A stretch of 32,057 bases of DNA from Myxococcota bacterium (GTDB taxonomy: Bacteria > Myxococcota_A > Bradymonadia > Bradymonadales > Bradymonadaceae). The notes beneath the pieces are model-generated. The model ran no database searches. It was not told the origin of the DNA and saw only the letters and a list, made by a program, of their open reading frames with translations. Below are positions 9,552-32,057 of the stretch, piece by piece (the first letter of the stretch is position 1; the number at the start of each line of letters is the position of its first letter). The stretch spans positions 1-32,057 of the forward strand of contig JAYZVO010000125.1 of assembly GCA_036155555.1 (NCBI GenBank). Direction: 5' to 3'. The position numbers and the translations under genes were made by a program.

Positions 9552-9599
9552 TTCGGCCATTGCGCCGAACAACCTTCGCTCGCATCAGGAGAAGCGCGC

Positions 9600-19874: not shown

Positions 19875-19968
19875 AACATGACGATGTGGTCAAGCGGTTC
19901 CTGGCTCGGGACACGTTTGCCCTGAGGAAGGGCGCGGTGTTCTCCGTGTGAAAGCAGGTGAGAAGAAG

Positions 19969-22900
19969 ATGACGACCGAACCGATCGAGCAAGCAGAAGC
20001 GCAGGAGTCTGGCGACGCCGCGCTCGAGACAAGCAACTACGAGGTGATCCGCAAGCGCCTCGTGGATCAAGGCCGCGAGTTGGCCAAACGCGCCGAGTCC
20101 CTGAACCAAAAGCGTCAGGACTTCTTCGGCACGATCTCGATGGAGGTCGTCGGCAACCAGACGATCACCACCGAGAACAACTGCATCCCGCAGGACATCA
20201 TCAACCTCGGGGACTGCCTGCTCTTTGGCTACAACGTCCACCGCAAGATGTCCCAGACGCAGATCCCGGATGTCTTTAGCTTGCACCGATTTAGCAAGGA
20301 AGGAGAGGAGCTCAGTCTGCGGCATGTGCCGCAGGACACGGGCGAGAACTTCCTGAGCCAGCCGCAGTTCATGGAGGACTTCGACAAGCTCTACTTCTCC
20401 TTCAAGGACGCCTTCTTGCGCCAGCTGCGCCGGACCGAAGGGCGCCTGCTCGCGATCTTCCAGACGGGCTCGAAGCTCGAGGATATCCGCGTGCTGCGTT
20501 GGGCCGTCGACGCGCATGACAACGTCACCTACATCGACAACGCTGGCGAGAAAGACAACGTCCAGGCGCGCTCGCACGACTTCGCCTGGGTCGCCACGCG
20601 CCGCGAGGACATGATCACGGGGCGCCACCCGCACATCGCGATCAAGAACAAGGTCTTCGTCGAGACCGTCGGCGGCGACCTCACCATCAAGGTCGAGGAC
20701 AACACCGAAGATGGCGTCGGCGTCTACTCCGAGCCTGTCGAGGATCAAAACCAGGCGCTCGGAGACGCCGAGATCTTTTACGCCGAGGTCGGCGCGCTGA
20801 TCCTGCTCAAGATCCGCCCCTACCGAGAGGACAACTGGCGTTACCTGGTGTTTAACACCCTGACCAAGACGGCCGCGCGCATCGACTCCATCGGGCAGTC
20901 CTGCGTGGCCTTGCCCGAGGACCACGGGATCATCTTCCCCGGCGGTTATGTGTTGGAGTCTGGCGAGGTCAAGACCTTCGAGCACGACACGCGCGATATG
21001 CGGATCGCCGAGACGCGCCGTTCGCCAAACGGCGAGGACGTGCTCTTTGCCTTCACGCGTCCGCAGGATGGGCAATACCTGTTGCTCTCCTACAACCTGA
21101 TCCGCAAGGAAGTCCTGAACCCGATCCTGTGCCACGGCTACTCGATCTTTGACGATGGCACGATGATCATCTTCCGCTCGACGGGGGACCAACAAACGCG
21201 CCACCACCCGATGCAAGTCTGGGGGACGCCGTTTTTGTCGGACGAGTACGCGGCGCAGATCCCATCGGATGGATCGCTGCTCTCCAAGATCGGCAACGCC
21301 GAGCTGGTGCGCGGCATTTCGGATGGCTTGACCATCCGAAAAATGATCAACAACCAGGAGCCGACCACCGAGATCTACACCTCGATCATCTCGGCCGCCG
21401 AGCGCATGATCGACGCCTACTACTGGATCGGCGAATCAGAAGCGGGCGACATGCGCGCGCCACTGCGCGAGGTCGTCAAGACGGCGACGTTGATTATCGA
21501 GGAGTTCGAGAAAGTCCGCGCGATGCGCCAGAACGCACGCGAGGCGCTCCGTGAAGCGGAGCGCGAGCAGTCGCGCCTCTTTGGCGATATTCGCTACGCG
21601 AACTGGCGCGAGATCGGGCGCTTTGTCGACGGATTGGATGGGCTGCGCAGCCAGCGAGGTCGCCTGATCACGCTGCGCGAAATGAAGTACATGCAGGTCG
21701 AGCGCATCGACGAGCTCGAGCAGGAGGTCATCGACCACTACGACAAACTCTCGAAGGCGACCGTCAGTTTCTTGCTCGGTGAGGGCTCGCTCTCGACCTA
21801 CCGCGCGAAAATCGACGCCGTGATCAAGGGGATCGAGGAGATCCAGACGACCGTCGAGGCCACAAAGATCAAGGAGGAGCTCGACACCATCGGCGAGGGG
21901 CTCAACCTCCTGACCGAGGTCATCAGCGGACTCAAGATCGAGGACCCCACCGCGCGCACGCAGATCCTCGAGAACATCGCCGAGGTGCTCGGGCAGCAGA
22001 ACCGCGCCCGCGCCATGCTCGACGCCAAGAACCGCGCGCTGCTCGAGACGGAGGGGCGCGCCGAATTCGCCGTGCAATTCCAGCTGCTCGGGCAGTCGGT
22101 CACGAGCGCCATCTCCATGGCCGAGACGCCCGAGCGATGCGACGAGCAGCTCGAGCGCATGATGGTCCAGCTCCAGGAGATGGAGAGCCGCTTTAGCGAG
22201 TTCGACATGTTTCTGGCGCAGCTGACCGAGAAGCGCGAGGAGATCTACGAGGTCTTCGAGACGCGCAAGCAGCAACTGATCGAGGCGCGCCAGCGCAAGG
22301 CATCGACGATCAACCAGGCCGCCGAGAAGATCCTGGCGGGCATCCAGCGCCGCGCGCGCAAGATGGAGGATGTCGAGGCGCTCAACGCTTATTTTGCCGC
22401 CGATGCCATGGTCATCAAGATCCGCGAGATGGCCACGCAGCTTCGCGAGTTGAAAGAGCCCGTCAAGGCCGACGACCTCGAGAACCAGCTCAAGGCCACG
22501 CGCGATCAATCGATCCGCACGTTGCGCGACAAGCTCGACCTGTTCGAAGGGGGCGACGCCGTCATCAAGCTCGGCAAGCACCGCTTTAGCATCAACACAC
22601 AGTCGCTCGAGCTCACGATGGTGCCCCGTGATAACGAGGTTCGCCTCCACATCACTGGCACCGACTTCTACGAGCAGGTCGAGGACAAGGAGTTCCTCGA
22701 GACGCGCTACCTCTGGGATCAACAGCTGATCTCGGAGACGCGCGACGTGTACCGTGGCGAGTATCTGGCGGCGTGCATCCTCGAGGATGCACGCACCAAG
22801 GCCAAGGGCTACACGATCCCGGATCTCTTCGATCTCTCGGTCAAGGACGACGAGCTGTTGCTGGTCGTGCGCAAGTACATCGAGGAGCGCTACGACGAGG

Positions 22901-25713
22901 GTTACGAGCGCGGCGTGCACGACACGGACACGACGCAGATCCTGACCGCGTTGCTCGGGCTCTACATCACGGCTGGGTTGCTCCGGTTCGGGTCGAAGGC
23001 GCGCGCGTTGGCGACGCTCTACTGGGCCACCGAGCCAGAAGAGCTCGAGGTCGAGAAGACATCAGCGATGACGCTCGAGCAGCGTCGCAAGGCCAAGGAG
23101 TCCCCGGCGCAAAGACGCCGCAAGCTGCTCGTTCGCCGCGCGCAATCATTCGGGAGGTTGAGAAAGACCTTCTCGTCGGCCTCCGCGGTCGCGGAGCTTC
23201 GCGCCGAGGTCGCCAGAGAACTCGGCGGCTTCTGCGAAGAGCATGGCCTGGATGACATCTTCTCGGGTCGCGTGCGCGTCGAAGCTGCCGACTACCTCAT
23301 CGAGGAGCTAGCAGCTGGCGAGCACCCACACTTTATTTTGAACTCCGAGGCGGAGCAGCTCGCGCGCAAGTTCTTCGACCACCTGGACCTGAGCAACTCG
23401 CGCAAGGACTTCGAGGATGATCTCGAAACATTGACCGGCGAGCTCGAGGCGAGCTGGGAGTTGGCGAGCAGCTGGCTCGCCGCATACACCGAGCAACGCC
23501 GCGAGGACGAAACGCCCGTCGGGTACCTGATGGACGAGACCATCGCGTACCTGATCACGAGCGGACAGATCGAGCGCGAGATCTCTTCGGCAAAGACCGA
23601 GACCCAGGTCAAGGAGTTGCTCGGGCAGCACCCGAGGATCGTCTCGCAAGTGCTCACGATCCGCCTGGACGAGTTCCTCTCGAGGTTGGATCGCTACATC
23701 CACGAGCGCGCGCCGGAGTACCGCGCCTACCGCAAGCTCTCGCACACGGTGCTCGACCGAGTGCGCAAGAGGTTGCGTCTGGACGAGCTCAAGCCGCGCG
23801 TGCTCTCGACGTTCGTGCGTAACCGGCTTATCGACGAGGTTTATCTGCCGTTGATCGGTGACAACCTCGCCAAGCAGATGGGCTCGGTGGGCGAATCAGG
23901 GCGCTCGGACAGGCAAGGCTTGCTGCTGCTCATCTCGCCGCCAGGTTACGGCAAGACGACGTTGATGGAGTATGTGGCGAACCGCCTCGGGCTGACGTTC
24001 ATGAAGATCAACGGCCCCGCGATCGGGCACCACGTGGTCTCGCTCGATCCGAGCGAGGCGCCAAACGCCACGGCGCGGCAGGAGGTCGAGAAGATCAACC
24101 TCTCGCTGCGCATGGGCAACAACGTGATGCTTTACCTGGATGATATCCAGCACTGTAACCCGGAGTTGTTGCAGAAGTTCATCTCGTTGTGTGATGCCAC
24201 GCGTCGCATCGAGGGTGTCTGGGATGGCCAGACAAAGACCTACGACCTTCGCGGCAAGCGCTTCTCGGTGGTCATGGCGGGGAACCCGTACACCGAGACC
24301 GGCGAGCGATTCCAGATCCCGGACATGCTCGCCAACCGCGCGGACACCTACAACCTGGGTGATATCCTGGAAGGTTCGCAGGATGCGTTCGCGCTCAGTT
24401 ACATCGAGAACGCGCTCACATCGAACCCTGTGCTCGCGCCTCTGTCGAACAGGGAGAAGGAGGACATTCACCTCTTTATCCGCATGGCGCAGGGCGAGGA
24501 TATCGCGCTGACGGACATGAAGTATAGCTACTCTGCGGTCGAGGCGAACGAGATCGTGACCGTTCTGAAGAAGCTGTTTGTCTGTCAGGATGTCCTGTTG
24601 CAGGTCAACCAGGCCTACATCGAGTCGGCGTCACAGGATGATGCTTATCGCACCGAGCCGCCGTTCAAGCTCCAGGGTTCGTACCGCAACATGACCAAGC
24701 TGGCCGAGAAGGTCGTCTCTGCCATGAACGATCAGGAGCTCGAGGCGCTGATCGATGACCACTACCTTGGCGAATCGCAGACGTTGACCACGGAAGCGGA
24801 GCAGAACTTGCTCAAGCTCAAGGAGATCCGAGGGCGTCTCACCGCAGAGGAGAAGGAGCGCTGGGAGTCGATCAAGAAAGAATACCGCCGTCGCAAGATG
24901 ATGGGTGGTGGGGACAATGATCCTGTGAGTCGGGTCGCCGGACCGATCAGCTCGTTGGTGCAGCGCGTCGAGGAGCTCCAGGGCGTGTTCCAGGGCAACA
25001 GCCAACTCAACACACCGCTCGAGGGTATCCGGGACGCGATCACCACAGCGGTCGCGCAACTCCAGACCGAGGGCGTGGCGTCGAAGAGCAACGAGGGCCA
25101 GCAAAACACAGGCTTGAGCCCTCAGGTGATCGAGCAACTCACCGCAGCGATCGCGGCGATGGGAGCGAGCAACAGCAACAACGGCAAGCACTCTGACCAG
25201 GTCGAGGCGTTGTTGCAGCGGCAGACGTTGATGTTCGAGGGCGCCTTCGGCGCGATCGAGAAGTTGGCGGATGCACAGGCGAACTCGAACCGCCAGAGCG
25301 CGGATACGCTGCGCTCGATCGAGAAGCTGATGCAGTCAGCTCCTGTGGCGCTCAAGACACCACCTCCGGGCTCGTTCGGAGGAGCACCTGTTGCGGGTCA
25401 GGGGCACACAATGCCAGCATCCTCATCGGGAGATGGTGGGGGAGGCTTTGGCGATCGTCCTTTGACGGGGGTCAAGAAGCGGCTTCCATTCAAGGAAGCG
25501 CGCAAACAAACCGCCGAGCACGAGGCGATCTCTCGCGATGATCCTCCGACCGAGGATGAGGCGAGCAGCGCACCAGCAAACACCTCCTCGCCGCAGGAGG
25601 CGCCTTTGACAAACGAGGCAAATCCAGCGCGAGCACAGGAGCCAAACGAAGCACAAGGTGGTAAAAAGAAAGGGAAGGTTCGCCTGGAGCCGCCATTTGA
25701 CACCGAAGATTGA
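19969..25713 (+). CDS. Giant (1,914-aa) protein: about 470-aa N-terminal beta-rich domain, about 800 aa coiled-coil/helical region, single AAA+ ATPase module of the MoxR/dynein (AAA_5) type, and about 440-aa helical plus low-complexity C-terminal tail
   Basis: SD AGGTGA 7 nt before ATG 19969; a GTG start at 19948 is also possible. Walker A 'LLLISPPGYGKTTLMEYVANRLG' at nt about 23944-23961. Walker B/helix 'NNVMLYLDDIQHCNPELLQKFISLCD' at about 24128-24143. Sensor-1-like 'RFSVVMAGNPYTE'. 'IPDMLANRADTYNL' resembles the MoxR 'LPEALLDRF' region. Heptad-rich segment about 21400-22550. The C-terminus is Q/S/N/G/P-rich and ends KKKGKVRLEPPFDTED. No protease, nuclease or VWA motifs were seen. Confidence 0.8.
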   Translation: MTTEPIEQAEAQESGDAALETSNYEVIRKRLVDQGRELAKRAESLNQKRQDFFGTISMEVVGNQTITTENNCIPQDIINLGDCLLFGYNVHRKMSQTQIPDVFSLHRFSKEGEELSLRHVPQDTGENFLSQPQFMEDFDKLYFSFKDAFLRQLRRTEGRLLAIFQTGSKLEDIRVLRWAVDAHDNVTYIDNAGEKDNVQARSHDFAWVATRREDMITGRHPHIAIKNKVFVETVGGDLTIKVEDNTEDGVGVYSEPVEDQNQALGDAEIFYAEVGALILLKIRPYREDNWRYLVFNTLTKTAARIDSIGQSCVALPEDHGIIFPGGYVLESGEVKTFEHDTRDMRIAETRRSPNGEDVLFAFTRPQDGQYLLLSYNLIRKEVLNPILCHGYSIFDDGTMIIFRSTGDQQTRHHPMQVWGTPFLSDEYAAQIPSDGSLLSKIGNAELVRGISDGLTIRKMINNQEPTTEIYTSIISAAERMIDAYYWIGESEAGDMRAPLREVVKTATLIIEEFEKVRAMRQNAREALREAEREQSRLFGDIRYANWREIGRFVDGLDGLRSQRGRLITLREMKYMQVERIDELEQEVIDHYDKLSKATVSFLLGEGSLSTYRAKIDAVIKGIEEIQTTVEATKIKEELDTIGEGLNLLTEVISGLKIEDPTARTQILENIAEVLGQQNRARAMLDAKNRALLETEGRAEFAVQFQLLGQSVTSAISMAETPERCDEQLERMMVQLQEMESRFSEFDMFLAQLTEKREEIYEVFETRKQQLIEARQRKASTINQAAEKILAGIQRRARKMEDVEALNAYFAADAMVIKIREMATQLRELKEPVKADDLENQLKATRDQSIRTLRDKLDLFEGGDAVIKLGKHRFSINTQSLELTMVPRDNEVRLHITGTDFYEQVEDKEFLETRYLWDQQLISETRDVYRGEYLAACILEDARTKAKGYTIPDLFDLSVKDDELLLVVRKYIEERYDEGYERGVHDTDTTQILTALLGLYITAGLLRFGSKARALATLYWATEPEELEVEKTSAMTLEQRRKAKESPAQRRRKLLVRRAQSFGRLRKTFSSASAVAELRAEVARELGGFCEEHGLDDIFSGRVRVEAADYLIEELAAGEHPHFILNSEAEQLARKFFDHLDLSNSRKDFEDDLETLTGELEASWELASSWLAAYTEQRREDETPVGYLMDETIAYLITSGQIEREISSAKTETQVKELLGQHPRIVSQVLTIRLDEFLSRLDRYIHERAPEYRAYRKLSHTVLDRVRKRLRLDELKPRVLSTFVRNRLIDEVYLPLIGDNLAKQMGSVGESGRSDRQGLLLLISPPGYGKTTLMEYVANRLGLTFMKINGPAIGHHVVSLDPSEAPNATARQEVEKINLSLRMGNNVMLYLDDIQHCNPELLQKFISLCDATRRIEGVWDGQTKTYDLRGKRFSVVMAGNPYTETGERFQIPDMLANRADTYNLGDILEGSQDAFALSYIENALTSNPVLAPLSNREKEDIHLFIRMAQGEDIALTDMKYSYSAVEANEIVTVLKKLFVCQDVLLQVNQAYIESASQDDAYRTEPPFKLQGSYRNMTKLAEKVVSAMNDQELEALIDDHYLGESQTLTTEAEQNLLKLKEIRGRLTAEEKERWESIKKEYRRRKMMGGGDNDPVSRVAGPISSLVQRVEELQGVFQGNSQLNTPLEGIRDAITTAVAQLQTEGVASKSNEGQQNTGLSPQVIEQLTAAIAAMGASNSNNGKHSDQVEALLQRQTLMFEGAFGAIEKLADAQANSNRQSADTLRSIEKLMQSAPVALKTPPPGSFGGAPVAGQGHTMPASSSGDGGGGFGDRPLTGVKKRLPFKEARKQTAEHEAISRDDPPTEDEASSAPANTSSPQEAPLTNEANPARAQEPNEAQGGKKKGKVRLEPPFDTED

Positions 25714-28882: not shown

Positions 28883-29986
28883 ATGTCGAAGAGAATGATA
28901 AGAATCGCGGCGCTCGCGAGCGTGTCGCTCTGTGTGTTCGCGAGCACCGCTCAGGCGGAAGAGCTCGCGGCGAGCCCGATGGTGGCTGCGCGCGTGGCCT
29001 TCGAGAATCAGATGACGCCAGGCTTTGGCGCGTTGGCCAAGCGAGGCGCGACGTTCGAGGGCGTATTGGCGCTCGACGCGTTACCAGGAGGGGGCTGGGC
29101 CGCAGAGGTCGAGGTTTCTTACAAGAACCTGAGCGTGCGTTACCCCGTGAAGTTTCAACACGCAGAGGTCGAGGGCTGTGACAACTGGACGGTGAGTTGG
29201 ACGCCAAACGAGGCGTTCTCGACGGCCTTGTTGAACGTGGCGTCCTCGGGCGCGCTCCCCGAGGCGCCGAGCGCCAGGGAGTGGAGCGAGCATGCCAGGC
29301 TGCCAGCGCTTCCGATCTTGCTCACGCGCGACAAGATGATCACGCCTTACGGGGCGGTCGATATCCAACGTGAGTTGGCCGAGCTGGACACCTCGCAGAA
29401 AGGCGCGAGCATCGCGCCTCCTCCTTCGTTGGTAAAGCACACGAAGAAGTGGCTCGAGGAGTATCTGGAGAACGACGAGGGGGCTGCGAGCGTGGACGTG
29501 ATCGCGGACAGGAGAGCGACCTGGCAAGATCTAACGCGCGTGGTCTTTGGCACCTCGAGCGTCGGCTTCTACAAGTTGTATCTGGTGGCCTCACGAGAGG
29601 ATGGCTCGTTGGGGGCCATCGAGACAGCCGCGCCGATCTTCGGGAGCCTCCCTGGCGTCAAGAAGCCCGTGCCGCTCGTATTGGGGTATTATCCACTCGA
29701 GCAAGGATCTGGATTTCGAGTGAGTCAGGGGAGCGCGGTGCTCGAGGACAAGGACGCGTGCGCCGATGAGATGAGCTTCTGCGTCGCGGATGGCGGCGAG
29801 TTCGACAAGCGACTCGCCGCACTCGCCGCAGGAATGAGAGCAAAGAAGCCGGATAATCCTTCCTATGCGATGTTTGCCACCACGGGCGACGTGACAGTCG
29901 GCGCGGCGGTCGCGTGGCTCGAGCGCGTTGGCGCGGGGCTCTCTATCCCGCAGCGGCGCGTGTTCATCGGATACATCGAACGATAA
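28883..29986 (+). CDS. Hypothetical secreted protein (signal peptide)
   Basis: RBS AAGAGGA 4 nt before the ATG. Signal 'MIRIAALASVSLCVFASTAQAEE'. High GC3 throughout. No recognizable motif. Confidence 0.55.
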   Translation: MSKRMIRIAALASVSLCVFASTAQAEELAASPMVAARVAFENQMTPGFGALAKRGATFEGVLALDALPGGGWAAEVEVSYKNLSVRYPVKFQHAEVEGCDNWTVSWTPNEAFSTALLNVASSGALPEAPSAREWSEHARLPALPILLTRDKMITPYGAVDIQRELAELDTSQKGASIAPPPSLVKHTKKWLEEYLENDEGAASVDVIADRRATWQDLTRVVFGTSSVGFYKLYLVASREDGSLGAIETAAPIFGSLPGVKKPVPLVLGYYPLEQGSGFRVSQGSAVLEDKDACADEMSFCVADGGEFDKRLAALAAGMRAKKPDNPSYAMFATTGDVTVGAAVAWLERVGAGLSIPQRRVFIGYIER

Positions 29987-29995
29987 GGGGAGCCC

Positions 29996-30403
29996 ATGAA
30001 GTTCAAGCGAATCGATTGTTTATGTGTCGCGCTCTCGCTCCTGATTCTCGGAGGTTGTGGCGACAAGCAAACGCAGCCGGACAAGGTCCCGACTGAAAAA
30101 GCCGTGGCGAGTTGTGGTGTGGTGAAGGACCCGTGGGGGGTTGCCAGCGCGTGGGCGGTGTCTCCAGGAGAGCAGGCTGCCGATGTTCAGGAGCTTCTGG
30201 CTGGTTGGGAGAATCCAACGGTCGCGCGCCTGTGGCGAGTGGATGATGCGCGCACGTGGAGCGCCATTATCGCGAGCAAGCCCGAGCCGGGTGCTGCGGA
30301 GAAGGTCATCTTGTTGACGATCACATATGCGGCAGATGGTCCTGACTACGCGTTAAACGAGGTGAAGGTAGGATCTGCCACGGAGCTCTGGCCCGAGCTC
30401 TGA
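29996..30403 (+). CDS. Hypothetical lipoprotein
   Basis: RBS AAGGGGA. Lipobox 'LSLLILGGCGDKQ'. 135 aa. Confidence 0.55.
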   Translation: MKFKRIDCLCVALSLLILGGCGDKQTQPDKVPTEKAVASCGVVKDPWGVASAWAVSPGEQAADVQELLAGWENPTVARLWRVDDARTWSAIIASKPEPGAAEKVILLTITYAADGPDYALNEVKVGSATELWPEL

Positions 30404-30433
30404 TGCCAGGCATCGTGAGAGCCAGACACAAGA

Positions 30434-30489
30434 AACCCCACACCCTCCGACGCGGGCCGAGCGGCCTTCGTAAAGGAGGGTGTGGGGGT
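30434..30489 (-). terminator. Candidate terminator for the ERF gene on the minus strand (13-bp stem CCCCACACCCTCC/GGAGGGTGTGGGG; on the minus strand it is followed by TTTCTTGT)
   Basis: Inverted repeat read directly. Lies between convergent genes. Confidence 0.45.
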
Positions 30490-30502
30490 TGGGGAGTATG
30501 AC

Positions 30503-30566
30503 CCCTCCCTGGTGAGGTGAAGCGCGCACCCACGCGCGCTCGTTCTCACCGGGGAGGGGATTTTTT
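30503..30566 (+). terminator. Rho-independent terminator for the + strand lipoprotein gene (stem CCCCTCCCTGGTGAG/CTCACCGGGGAGGGG, then ATTTTTTC)
   Basis: 15-bp stem with one G·U or mismatch, followed by a T6 run. Confidence 0.55.
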
Positions 30567-30572
30567 CGAGGG

Positions 30573-31388
30573 TCACTCTTCGATGTTCTCGATGACACCC
30601 TCGATGTAGTTCTTGCGCGTTTCAGCGTTCATGCCACGGAGCTTGCGACACATCGCGCTGATTTTCTGGGCGTCGATCTCCTCGAGGTTCTCTGCGCCCA
30701 TGCGCTCGACGTAGAGGTTCTGGAAGCTATCGCAGACCTCGGGTTCGGCGGACTCTTCGAGCAGCGCGCGGAACTCCTTGCTGCGCTCGGACCACTTGTT
30801 CTTCTCGTTCTCGGCCTTCTCTTCGGGGGCAGCCACGGCTTTTGGAGCTGGAGCAGCCTTTGGAGCAGCTTTTGGCGTAGGCGCAGGAGCTTGTTTGCGG
30901 CCGTTGACGGGGCGAGGAGCGTCGTCGTTCTCAGGATCGTCCCCGGTCGAGATGAGGAAGGTCTTGAGGAGGAAGTACTTGATCGCGCCGGTGTAAGCCT
31001 TGTAGTAGCCCTTGTCGCCGTTATCGAGGCCCTGCCCAACCCAGGTCGTGGTCATCATGTCACCGGATTCGCCGTCGATGAGGCTAACATCGAGGGTGAC
31101 GGTGGTCAGGTAGACGGTGCGGTTGCGAGCATCCTGGAGCTCATCCACGGTGTGTTCGCGAACGCTGGGGAAGAGCGCGACGCCTTGCTCGGCGAGCTTG
31201 GTGCGGATGTGGTCGACGAGGTCAGACTCGTAAACGTAGTCGTAACCGTGGAAGTCGTTGCGGCCGTTTTTGGGGACGCGGTGCACATCCATGAGGACCG
31301 TTGCCAACTTGCGAGCCAGCGGACGACCTTGCTCGGGGAGTGCTTGAGGAGGCGTTGGGAAGTGTGTGATGTTTGGGTTGGTGGCCAT
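30573..31388 (-). CDS. ERF-family single-strand annealing protein (phage P22 Erf-like recombinase)
   Basis: 'VPKNGRNDFHGYDYVYESDLVDHI' aligns with the Erf N-terminal 'APKNQYNSFGKYKYRSCEDILEGV' as I recall the P22 sequence. '…DKGYYKAYTGAIKYFLLKTFLISTGDDPENDD' aligns with the Erf 'KGMDAAQVTGATSSYARKYCLNGLFGIDDAKDAD' region. A Pro/Ala/Lys-rich linker precedes an acidic C-terminal domain. RBS GAGAGGGA. Confidence 0.8.
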   Translation of the reverse strand: MATNPNITHFPTPPQALPEQGRPLARKLATVLMDVHRVPKNGRNDFHGYDYVYESDLVDHIRTKLAEQGVALFPSVREHTVDELQDARNRTVYLTTVTLDVSLIDGESGDMMTTTWVGQGLDNGDKGYYKAYTGAIKYFLLKTFLISTGDDPENDDAPRPVNGRKQAPAPTPKAAPKAAPAPKAVAAPEEKAENEKNKWSERSKEFRALLEESAEPEVCDSFQNLYVERMGAENLEEIDAQKISAMCRKLRGMNAETRKNYIEGVIENIEE

Positions 31389-31579
31389 GACGTCCCTCTC
31401 TTATTTAAGGCGTTGCTGTGAAAGCTTGCTCTTCTTGAAACTCATCCGCTCTATCCTGGAGCGATGTGACGGGAGATGAACCGTGTCCCCGTCGTGACAG
31501 TTTCAATTGTAGGGAGGCCCCCCAAACTCTCAATGTCTTGTTTTTACGCAATACGATCAAAAACCACCACCAACCACTT

Positions 31580-31640
31580 CTTACCATCGTTATACGACCA
31601 AAAACAAAGCTTGCTTGGCTTACCATCGCCATACAAGCCA
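31580..31640. repeat. Two imperfect 21-nt direct repeats, CTTACCATCG(T/C)(T/C)ATAC(G/A)A(C/G)CCA, spaced about 39 bp apart in a low-GC region upstream of the ERF gene
   Basis: 'cttaccatcgttatacgacca' (31580-31600) and 'cttaccatcgccatacaagcca' (31619-31640). The surrounding 31400-31800 is markedly AT-richer than the rest of the window. Confidence 0.4.
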
Positions 31641-32057
31641 ACAAGAGGTGATTTACCCCTGTTTTTGGTCACTTCGGTTGGCGAATATTCTGGCGCGAAC
31701 CACCGACGACAGCCCGCGCGATCCTGGCACGAAATTTTCAATATTTTCGACAACTTGAACAATCAACCCGCATCACTCTGACGGCAGCGACATATCGAAG
31801 GGGGCTTAAAATTTGGGGCCAGGATCGCGCGGAACGCCAGCAATCGAGCCCATTCCGTTCCATCGGGAAGAAATCGAGAGCCGCGACGCAAGATCCGCAG
31901 TTAAATCCCCGAAAACAGTATTGCCTGCCACGTCGTCTGGCCGTCGACGAGGTTGTGCCACGGATGCACCCTGCTCGTTTTGCGAGCAGCAAATCCGGCG
32001 AACCCGTTTTTTTCAATATCTTCCTGTCTGAAGGGGAGTGCTTGTTCCAAAGCGCGT

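Follow-up and report, generated by a model that had tools for sequence, protein, structure and literature searches.

Does a phage-type recombination gene at the end of a metagenomic contig mark the edge of a prophage, or does it belong to the chromosome? This question is raised by a stretch of 32,057 nucleotides (hereafter, the window; contig JAYZVO010000125.1 of the Myxococcota bacterium assembly GCA_036155555.1). Its rightmost gene, erf (30573–31388, minus strand, start codon ATG at 31388–31386, stop codon TGA at 30573–30575), encodes a protein of 271 aa, and the identical protein is labelled 'ERF family protein [Myxococcota bacterium]' at NCBI. The first-pass annotation of this DNA had proposed that the right end of the window enters a prophage, satellite or genomic island. 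It should be noted that the window (1–32,057) is a complete contig of a metagenome-assembled genome (MAG), the right end of which, 669 bp upstream of erf, is the end of the assembly; the window stops near erf because the contig ends there, and not at a biological boundary. Based on the results below, we suggest, with a probability of roughly 75%, that erf is a lone gene fixed in the chromosome of an uncultured marine Myxococcota lineage, and that the 670 bp on its right side belong to its own regulatory and intergenic region.

The flanks of orthologous genes were read to 10 kb on the right and to 10 kb on the left (30 kb in the window itself). The contexts were obtained mainly from exact-protein look-ups, and scans of metagenomes and genomes gave 12 loci and three close loci, respectively (the fetched loci carry L numbers). 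One contig (L003) extends 664 bp further to the right than the window and reaches the start of a divergent gene. In L010, which encodes an identical Erf and was read for 10 kb in both directions, the intergenic DNA on the right spans about 1 kb and is followed by genes for an amidohydrolase, a DUF3592 protein, a Bac_transf protein, a PglD-like acetyltransferase, a DegT aminotransferase, a flavoprotein, glycosyltransferases and a heparinase. The same arrangement was found in a sister lineage from marine TARA samples (L013–L016, Erf more than 90% identical; the contig behind L013 is 112 kb long). The rightward extension advised in the first-pass annotation thus brought up no integrase, single-stranded DNA-binding protein (SSB), replication or structural gene within 10 kb in L010 or L013–L016. 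The genes called up to 10 kb to the left and right of erf in L010, L013, L006 and L009 included no integrase family, no long direct repeats flank erf, and no tRNA was found in the window.

Furthermore, erf stands as a lone gene among host genes in 12 lineages, with Erf identities of 55–100%: 69% in L006–L008, 63% in L009 (a 286-kb contig), 69% in L080, 67% in L081, 55% in L082/L019, 58% in L083, 68% in L096, 65% in L097 and 58% in L098. The neighbours encode the amidohydrolase, the DUF3592 protein, polysaccharide enzymes, lipoproteins, peptidyl-prolyl isomerases (PPIases), a DUF3686 protein, and a TetR regulator with a P-type ATPase; only host-type genes were present in the two 10-kb flanks of L010, L013, L006 and L009 and in the available flanks of L080–L083 and L096–L098. 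The DegT and Bac_transf genes lie near erf in eight of the 12 lineages, directly adjacent in six and 1–5 kb away in the window lineage and its sister. In distant lineages erf is often followed by the TetR and P-type ATPase genes, beyond which come the hypothetical secreted proteins and the DUF3686 giant that are also present in the window. According to a tblastn matrix, the divergence of these neighbours (identities of 50–69% for DegT, 51–73% for Bac_transf and 45–47% for a 367-aa secreted protein) tracks that of Erf (58–69%). No conserved partner gene was found beside erf across the orthologous loci, and neither Erf nor its neighbours matched the PADLOC defence families. Among 2.9 million IMG/VR viral contigs there was no Erf orthologue, only two distant relatives with an ERF domain. 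The claim that the window runs into a mobile element did not survive these comparisons. The first-pass annotation had named, as evidence that would speak against it, a lack of other mobile genes for about 30 kb to the right together with a syntenic erf; we find no such genes over the 10 kb that were read, and a syntenic erf.

The composition of the locus was also examined. The G+C content (GC) is 0.514 for 31389–32057 and 0.472 for 31500–31800, as opposed to 0.614 for the whole window, and the sharp drop upstream of erf reported earlier is therefore real. However, the other intergenic stretches of the window have a GC of 0.49–0.60; as the low value matches them, it gives no sign of foreign DNA and loses its meaning as a signal of a mobile element. 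The comparison of GC and codon usage advised earlier places erf within the range of the other window genes: its GC is 0.60, its GC at third codon positions (GC3) is 0.765 (host range 0.61–0.85), and its codon usage correlates with that of the other genes at 0.78. A foreign composition of erf was rejected on these grounds.

With regard to selection, the ratio of non-synonymous to synonymous divergence (dN/dS) between erf and its counterpart in the sister lineage (L013) was 0.079 overall, and the 136 codons of the ERF domain (aa 20–155) showed no non-synonymous change at a dS of 0.18; dS is saturated in all but this closest pair, and the ratios of distant pairs are only indicative. An intact reading frame was present in about 30 orthologue clusters, with a mean identity of 81% in the ERF domain. 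Judged from sequence, conserved synteny, host-like composition and purifying selection point together to a long-resident gene.

Where might such a gene have come from? A neighbour-joining tree of the ERF domain placed all 31 of 31 orthologues in one monophyletic group. Relatives just outside this clade were found in phage modules wherever their context was readable. In L089 (71% identical in the domain, 222 aa), an Erf–SSB pair is followed by a DNA methyltransferase and a deoxynucleoside monophosphate kinase, with a helicase nearby. In L090 (57% in the domain), Erf is followed by a RecE-like exonuclease and repressor-like regulators, and L091–L093 are 39–42% identical over nearly the full length, L091 lying near DnaB- and DnaC-like genes. 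Since the nearest outside relatives reside in phage modules, an old capture from a phage looks likely, and the ancestor of the clade would have taken up a phage erf and kept it. The detection of these modules also serves as a positive control, because it indicates that our reading of flanks finds phage neighbours where they are present. Bacterial ERF genes have been described as sporadic and flanked by phage genes, and Erf proteins as mostly phage-borne (PMC8987985); this description does not fit the present clade, in which erf is alone and syntenic.

The assignment of the minus-strand gene to the ERF family, made in the first-pass annotation, was confirmed. The protein matched Pfam ERF (PF04404, E 6.3e-13, 49.4 bits with a cut-off of 25, aa 25–174) and PHROG_155, 'Erf-like ssDNA annealing protein' (E 3e-31, aa 24–256); NCBIfam has no specific model for it. 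The conserved N-terminal motifs that had been quoted do occur, in approximate form (VPKNGRNDFHGYDYVYESD and DKGYYKAYTGAIKYFLLKTFLISTGDDPE), and are the most invariant stretches of the family alignment. A sequence search detected no solved structure. An AlphaFold2 model was built on 25 orthologues, and its N-terminal domain consists of two helices, three long strands and a helix (pLDDT confidence 84–94). The strands at 70–85, 91–105 and 111–122 and the helix at 128–147 correspond to the core fold of the Rad52 superfamily, a three-stranded sheet crossed by a helix (PMC11783212). Foldseek gave the N-terminal domain of human RAD52 as the top match (E 1.6e-4, probability 1.0, with low TM-scores of 0.26–0.47) and also retrieved the phage single-strand annealing protein (SSAP) Gp77.

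Based on these predictions, the protein appears to be an SSAP of the ERF/Rad52 fold composed of three parts, all encoded on the minus strand. The annealing domain (aa 25–174, 30867–31316) has the limits of the Pfam match and is supported by AlphaFold2, Foldseek and selection. A variable linker rich in Pro, Ala and Lys (aa 156–188, 30825–30923) is predicted to be disordered (pLDDT below 50) and differs in length and sequence among the orthologues. The C-terminal domain (aa 189–270, 30579–30824) is modelled with high confidence (pLDDT 93–97) as four helices (189–213, 216–229, 240–251 and 255–270), carries the motif AMCRKLRGM and is kept in 25 of 25 aligned orthologues. This domain is also covered by the phage-context relatives L091–L093 (query residues 31–252 and 31–269), and it is missing from the Erf + SSB phage type represented by L089. 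In addition, the first 11 residues (31388–31356), lying outside the ERF domain and predicted to be disordered, form the peptide MATNPN(V/I)T(H/Q)FP in all orthologues, near-invariant in most of the ~30, and are not found in the phage-module relatives; this may be a docking peptide.

The upstream region of erf contains a single promoter-like match between 30300 and 32057. This is a sigma-70-type promoter on the minus strand (31506–31533) with −35 TTGAGA (31533–31528), a 16-nt spacer and −10 TACAAT (31511–31506), agreeing with the consensus at 10 of 12 positions. When 12 orthologous upstream regions were anchored on a shared ATCGT and aligned without gaps, ATCGT at position 0, TTG at +24 and TAnnnT at +46 had the same offsets in all 12 loci. 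The resulting consensus is tTTTTGATCGTa...aAGaCgTTG...TAnAaT...gtGT, and the remaining intergenic DNA is unalignable. The element AAGACRTTG (consensus aAGaCgTTG in the same alignment) overlaps the −35 hexamer at 31531–31539 on the minus strand. Transcription would start at about 31499, as judged from the −10 hexamer, giving a predicted 5′ leader of ~111 nt (31389–31499, minus strand) with a 5′-proximal hairpin and the Shine–Dalgarno sequence GAGAGGGA. A 5′ hairpin was present in the folds of all 12 orthologous leaders, with no sequence in common, and an Rfam search of the upstream region gave no match at E up to 1. Downstream of erf, a scan found a terminator-like G+C-rich hairpin with a T-rich tail (30427–30490, minus strand; stem 30456–30437, tail GTTTCTTGTG), the inverted repeat of which, CCCCACACCCTCC/GGAGGGTGTGGGG, is common to the convergent lipoprotein gene. 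On this evidence erf is a monocistronic unit with its own sigma-70-type promoter and terminator-like hairpin.

Two open reading frames of this region were rejected. A frame of 75/79 aa at 31405–31644 (minus strand) is not a gene, as a 1-nt indel breaks it in the sister lineage, and a frame of 244 aa in L014–L016 (L014 7696–8430, minus strand) is spurious, with junk-like sequence, frame breaks and a GC3 of 0.60.

Upstream of the promoter lies a box, here called O1, composed of a T-tract and GATCGTAT (TTTTTGATCGTAT on the erf strand). It occupies 31551–31563 on the minus strand, about −64 to −51 from the inferred transcription start, and is a candidate regulator site. Its core, ATCGT, precedes the TTG of the −35 hexamer by exactly 24 nt in all 12 orthologous loci, the whole cis-element reading TTTTGATCGTAT. 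This conservation of a short site at a fixed position relative to the −35 and −10 hexamers suggests that the box is operator-like. As only TTG of the −35 hexamer is conserved, the weak −35 together with the phase-locked upstream site suggests an activator-dependent promoter. The palindrome TGATCGT-N3-ACGATCA is good in L097, L098 and L083 and incomplete in several other loci, and a good dyad was also seen in L019, L080 and a second box of the window, O2. Within 203 kb of clade DNA, TGATCGTAT was found only at the erf promoter, although this is too little sequence to judge a regulon.

Box O2, a palindromic copy (GGTCGTATAACGATGG + T-tract) at 31584–31605 on the minus strand, lies 41 bp upstream of O1 within the proximal of two direct repeats. 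It is the only match in the window to ATCGT-N3-ACGAT with at most one mismatch, is kept in the sister lineage L013–L016, and is missing from the more distant orthologues. The two imperfect direct repeats noticed in the first-pass annotation are real: 31580–31602 and 31619–31641 are identical at 18 of 23 positions and begin 39 bp apart, and a match this good within 100 nt arose in one of 100 dinucleotide-preserving shuffles. A second pair, not mentioned there, is ATACGATCAAAAAC/ATACGACCAAAAAC at 31551–64 and 31592–605 with a spacing of 41. The distal copy (31619–31641, 78% identical to 31580–31602) appears as a degenerate third unit, the CGATGGTAAG half of which is replaced in L013–L016. We infer that the repeats are lineage-specific duplications of an operator-bearing unit of ~40 bp (O1, then O2, then a decayed O3).

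It had been proposed that these repeats are either repressor operators or replication iterons, and of the two, operators are the better option. An iteron-type origin, taken as at least three near-identical repeats of 17–22 bp beside a replication initiator gene, was rejected: there are two copies at 78% and a degenerate third, no rep gene accompanies them, Tandem Repeats Finder reported no array, and the distal copy is unconserved in the sister lineage. We also compared the upstream regions with nine regulator consensus patterns, that of DriD being taken from PMC10853764. None of them, including the LexA-box types and the DriD core, occurred with at most one mismatch in more than two of the 12 orthologous upstream regions. 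The DriD operator of Caulobacter is ATACGAC-N7-GTCGTAT (PMC10853764). The erf box shares the half-site TCGTAT and a location upstream of the −35 hexamer, as at DriD-activated promoters (PMC9186387), but its architecture is different (ATCGT-N3-ACGAT or a single half-site). A DriD-type operator was rejected, because only the half-site is common and the core CGAC-N7-GTCG was found in 0 of 12 loci. DdiA of M. xanthus was set aside as a candidate, since its paper gives no motif for comparison.

What could the cell gain from this protein? P22 Erf and RAD52 form rings that bind single-stranded DNA and anneal complementary strands without RecA. On this model, rings formed by the N-terminal domain of the Erf protein would bind single-stranded DNA and pair complementary strands, with no need for ATP or RecA. 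Contacts with partners would probably fall to the C-terminal domain and the linker, as in other annealing proteins. Because no phage exonuclease or SSB gene lies beside erf, the nucleases and the SSB of the host would have to stand in for the lost phage partners. For the cell, it might serve in single-strand-annealing repair of double-strand breaks or in the rescue of gapped DNA. A candidate regulator would bind the phase-locked T-tract/GATCGTAT box upstream of the weak −35 hexamer, a position that would suit an activator. By this analogy the most likely role, to which we would give slightly less than an even chance, is that of a cellular repair protein which anneals DNA independently of RecA and is switched on via the conserved operator. 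A wider scenario is more doubtful and is offered tentatively: the marine Myxococcota clade may have turned a phage Erf into a cellular recombination protein, a counterpart of RAD52, with a dedicated promoter and GATCGTAT as the operator of a LexA-independent regulator of stress or DNA damage.

Several points weigh against these proposals. The host-repair role rests on analogy. In four of the 12 loci (L006, L009, L081 and L018) the palindrome of the box matches poorly on its right side; the box could therefore be a half-site, or it could be no regulator site at all but a portion of an UP-like element. The position of ~31499 for the start of transcription is a prediction. The C-terminal domain shows an apparent dN/dS of 0.5–1.1 in some distant pairs, a value that is unreliable at that divergence. 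Furthermore, all the sequences are metagenomic contigs or MAGs, which bears on the copy number per genome, on the presence of erf throughout the clade and on partner genes located elsewhere, and the flanks are known to 10 kb only (30 kb on the left in the window).

Among the rival explanations, an unlikely one is that erf acts in conflict with phages or mobile DNA, by exclusion, as a defence sensor or decoy, or through uptake of foreign single-stranded DNA that varies the polysaccharide locus. The phage ancestry of the gene is consistent with this, as is its position beside a polysaccharide-synthesis cluster whose gene content varies between lineages. Moreover, rings of phage SSAPs are known to trigger at least one defence system (the PDB match 9y6u is described as a RAZR:Gp77 complex). 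However, the PADLOC result and the lack of a conserved adjacent partner gene argue otherwise, and adjacency is the only tie to the glycan genes. It is very improbable that erf is a decaying relic, that is, the last gene of an ancient prophage without a host function. In its favour, the gene is alone and of phage ancestry, and the SSB and exonuclease partners of its relatives are missing. Against it, the frame is intact in ~30 orthologue clusters, dN/dS is 0.08 and falls to zero in the ERF domain, and all 12 loci keep the promoter in rigid register amid intergenic DNA that is unalignable.

Harder still to credit is a minimal mobile unit, in which erf and its upstream region insert site-specifically beside DegT/Bac_transf, so that the shared position would result from repeated insertion. 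Polymorphic palindromic insertions, described below, do occur upstream at points where assemblies break, and two extra genes part erf from Bac_transf in the window lineage. Nevertheless, erf has neither a recombinase or transposase nor flanking direct repeats, its divergence tracks that of its neighbours, the orthologues are monophyletic, and the palindromic elements are separate small indels at least 330 bp from the gene. The least probable explanation is the one with which we began, namely that a prophage, satellite or island begins on the left with erf and continues rightward, with the repeats as its operators or iterons: although Erf proteins are mostly phage-borne (PMC8987985), the nearest outgroup Erfs sit in phage modules and the DNA upstream combines lower GC with repeats, the right flank of L010 and L013 contains, over 10 kb, only amidohydrolase, DUF3592 and polysaccharide genes, synteny with co-diverging neighbours extends over 12 lineages, the composition is host-like with a GC drop equal to that of other intergenic DNA, and no tRNA, integrase or att site was found.

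The suggested solitary chromosomal erf can be compared with known systems. It resembles phage Erf SSAPs (PF04404, PHROG 155, prototype P22 Erf) in the family signature and the predicted Rad52-like N-terminal fold, and differs from them in having no adjacent SSB, exonuclease, Abc-like or replication gene, in its chromosomal site and in its private promoter. The nearest cultured example is the SSAP of the Salinibacter phages M31CC-1 and M8CC-19, which is 51% identical over aa 15–155; no record from cultured phages covers at least 80% of the window protein, and its C-terminal domain is unmatched there. Uncultured phage-module Erfs of the same environment are 57–71% identical in the ERF domain (L089 and L090) or 39–42% over nearly the full length, C-terminal domain included (L091–L093). 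These phage-module Erfs belong to recombination or replication modules, are without the GATCGTAT box and fall outside the orthologue clade.

Deinococcus DdrA and eukaryotic RAD52 are annealing or end-binding proteins of the Rad52 superfamily that are kept by their hosts as stand-alone cellular genes with their own regulation. They offer a model of how a host could make use of erf, which is similar to them as a stand-alone regulated gene but represents a different family (ERF) within the superfamily. No damage-response motif such as the radiation/desiccation response motif (RDRM) of Deinococcus was found upstream of erf. RecT of the E. coli Rac prophage (PMC8987985) is likewise a captured annealing protein of phage origin that is carried on a bacterial chromosome. 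Yet RecT lies inside a recognisable defective prophage together with RecE and is confined to close relatives, whereas the window erf is alone and extends to lineages with identities down to 55%.

Erf-type proteins are usually taken as markers of phages and prophages, and a lone, vertically inherited erf would be a counter-example; an Erf match alone should not define a prophage boundary in these MAGs. The protein family itself is already known, and what is unusual here is the probable long-term, solitary and regulated residence of the gene in a chromosome. The protein is thus a candidate for a host-domesticated member of the Rad52 superfamily in bacteria. With complete genomes or cultures at hand, the defined cis-element would give access to the regulator and its regulon. 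The protein might also serve as a recombineering annealase for Myxococcota, being presumably adapted to the host SSB.

Further upstream of erf, the window contains a polymorphic palindromic element (31714–31832) with arms of 24–29 nt (GCGCGATCCTGGCACGAAATTTTC) and a core of 67 nt, also present at 9559–9673 in L010 and 9557–9671 in L013. In the window the arms form an inverted repeat of 25 nt (31714–31738/31808–31832); they are perfect in L003 and L010–L012. In L013 and L084 these arms enclose a core of unrelated sequence, and the element is missing in L014–L016, which encode the same Erf as L013. Four independent contigs (L001, L002, L004 and L005) end inside the element or at its edge, which explains the assembly breaks near here, that of the window included. 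In its terminal inverted repeats and its presence/absence polymorphism, the element resembles a miniature inverted-repeat transposable element (MITE). A multicopy MITE was considered as the cause of the contig breaks, but neither the window nor the 1.1 Mb of fetched loci yielded a second copy, and the junction showed no clear target-site duplication. The arms contain a sigma-54-like TGGCACG-N4-TTTC; a sigma-54 promoter was not adopted, since its −12 part matches poorly and loci without the element lack an intact arm.

A separate palindromic insertion of ~165 bp, found only in L013 (9239–9400) and L084 (7240–7400), corresponds to about 31960–31975 of the window. It has inverted ends AGAGGGTGTTGAAGATATTC and flanking TA, and resembles a small MITE. 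Near the right end of the window, at 31994–32030, an island (TCCGGCGAACCCGTTTTTTTCAATATCTTCCTGTCTG) is near-invariant between lineages amid diverged intergenic DNA. It holds TTTTCAATATCTTC, a motif that recurs at 31735–31748 and in the ends of the L013 insertion. The island may be a regulatory site of the amidohydrolase gene, which is divergent and begins ~330 bp past the right end of the window.

The remaining genes of the window are host-like and encode an RCC1-repeat protein, glycosyltransferases, an epimerase, a methyltransferase, an adenylylsulfate (APS) kinase, a 1921-aa DUF3686/AAA protein, two SurA-like PPIases, a DUF6184 protein and two secreted proteins or lipoproteins. The secreted proteins at 28883–30403 had been left as either island cargo or flanking host genes; they are flanking host genes, and their orthologues lie near the DUF3686 giant gene in L006 and L009. 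Directly downstream of erf, genes for a TetR-family regulator and a heavy-metal P-type ATPase are found in L006 (11036–15342), L009 (10992–14140) and L080 (12038–12715); the window lineage is without them, and there an insertion of the amidohydrolase and DUF3592 genes separates Bac_transf from erf. The stretch from the convergent lipoprotein gene to erf (30404–30572) contains two G+C-rich inverted repeats, CCCCACACCCTCC...GGAGGGTGTGGGG and CCCCTCCCTGGTGAG...CTCACCGGGGAGGGG, the latter followed by TTTTTT, which are probably the terminators of these two genes. The 1921-aa protein (19948–25713) gave DUF3686, DUF7902 and weak AAA matches, and its gene is kept near erf in distant lineages (L009, L010 and L013). 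At the other end of the window, a 583-aa protein encoded at 434–2185 adjoins the polysaccharide cluster and carries seven RCC1 repeats (RCC1-like domain, E 6e-78), which form a propeller of a mostly eukaryotic type.

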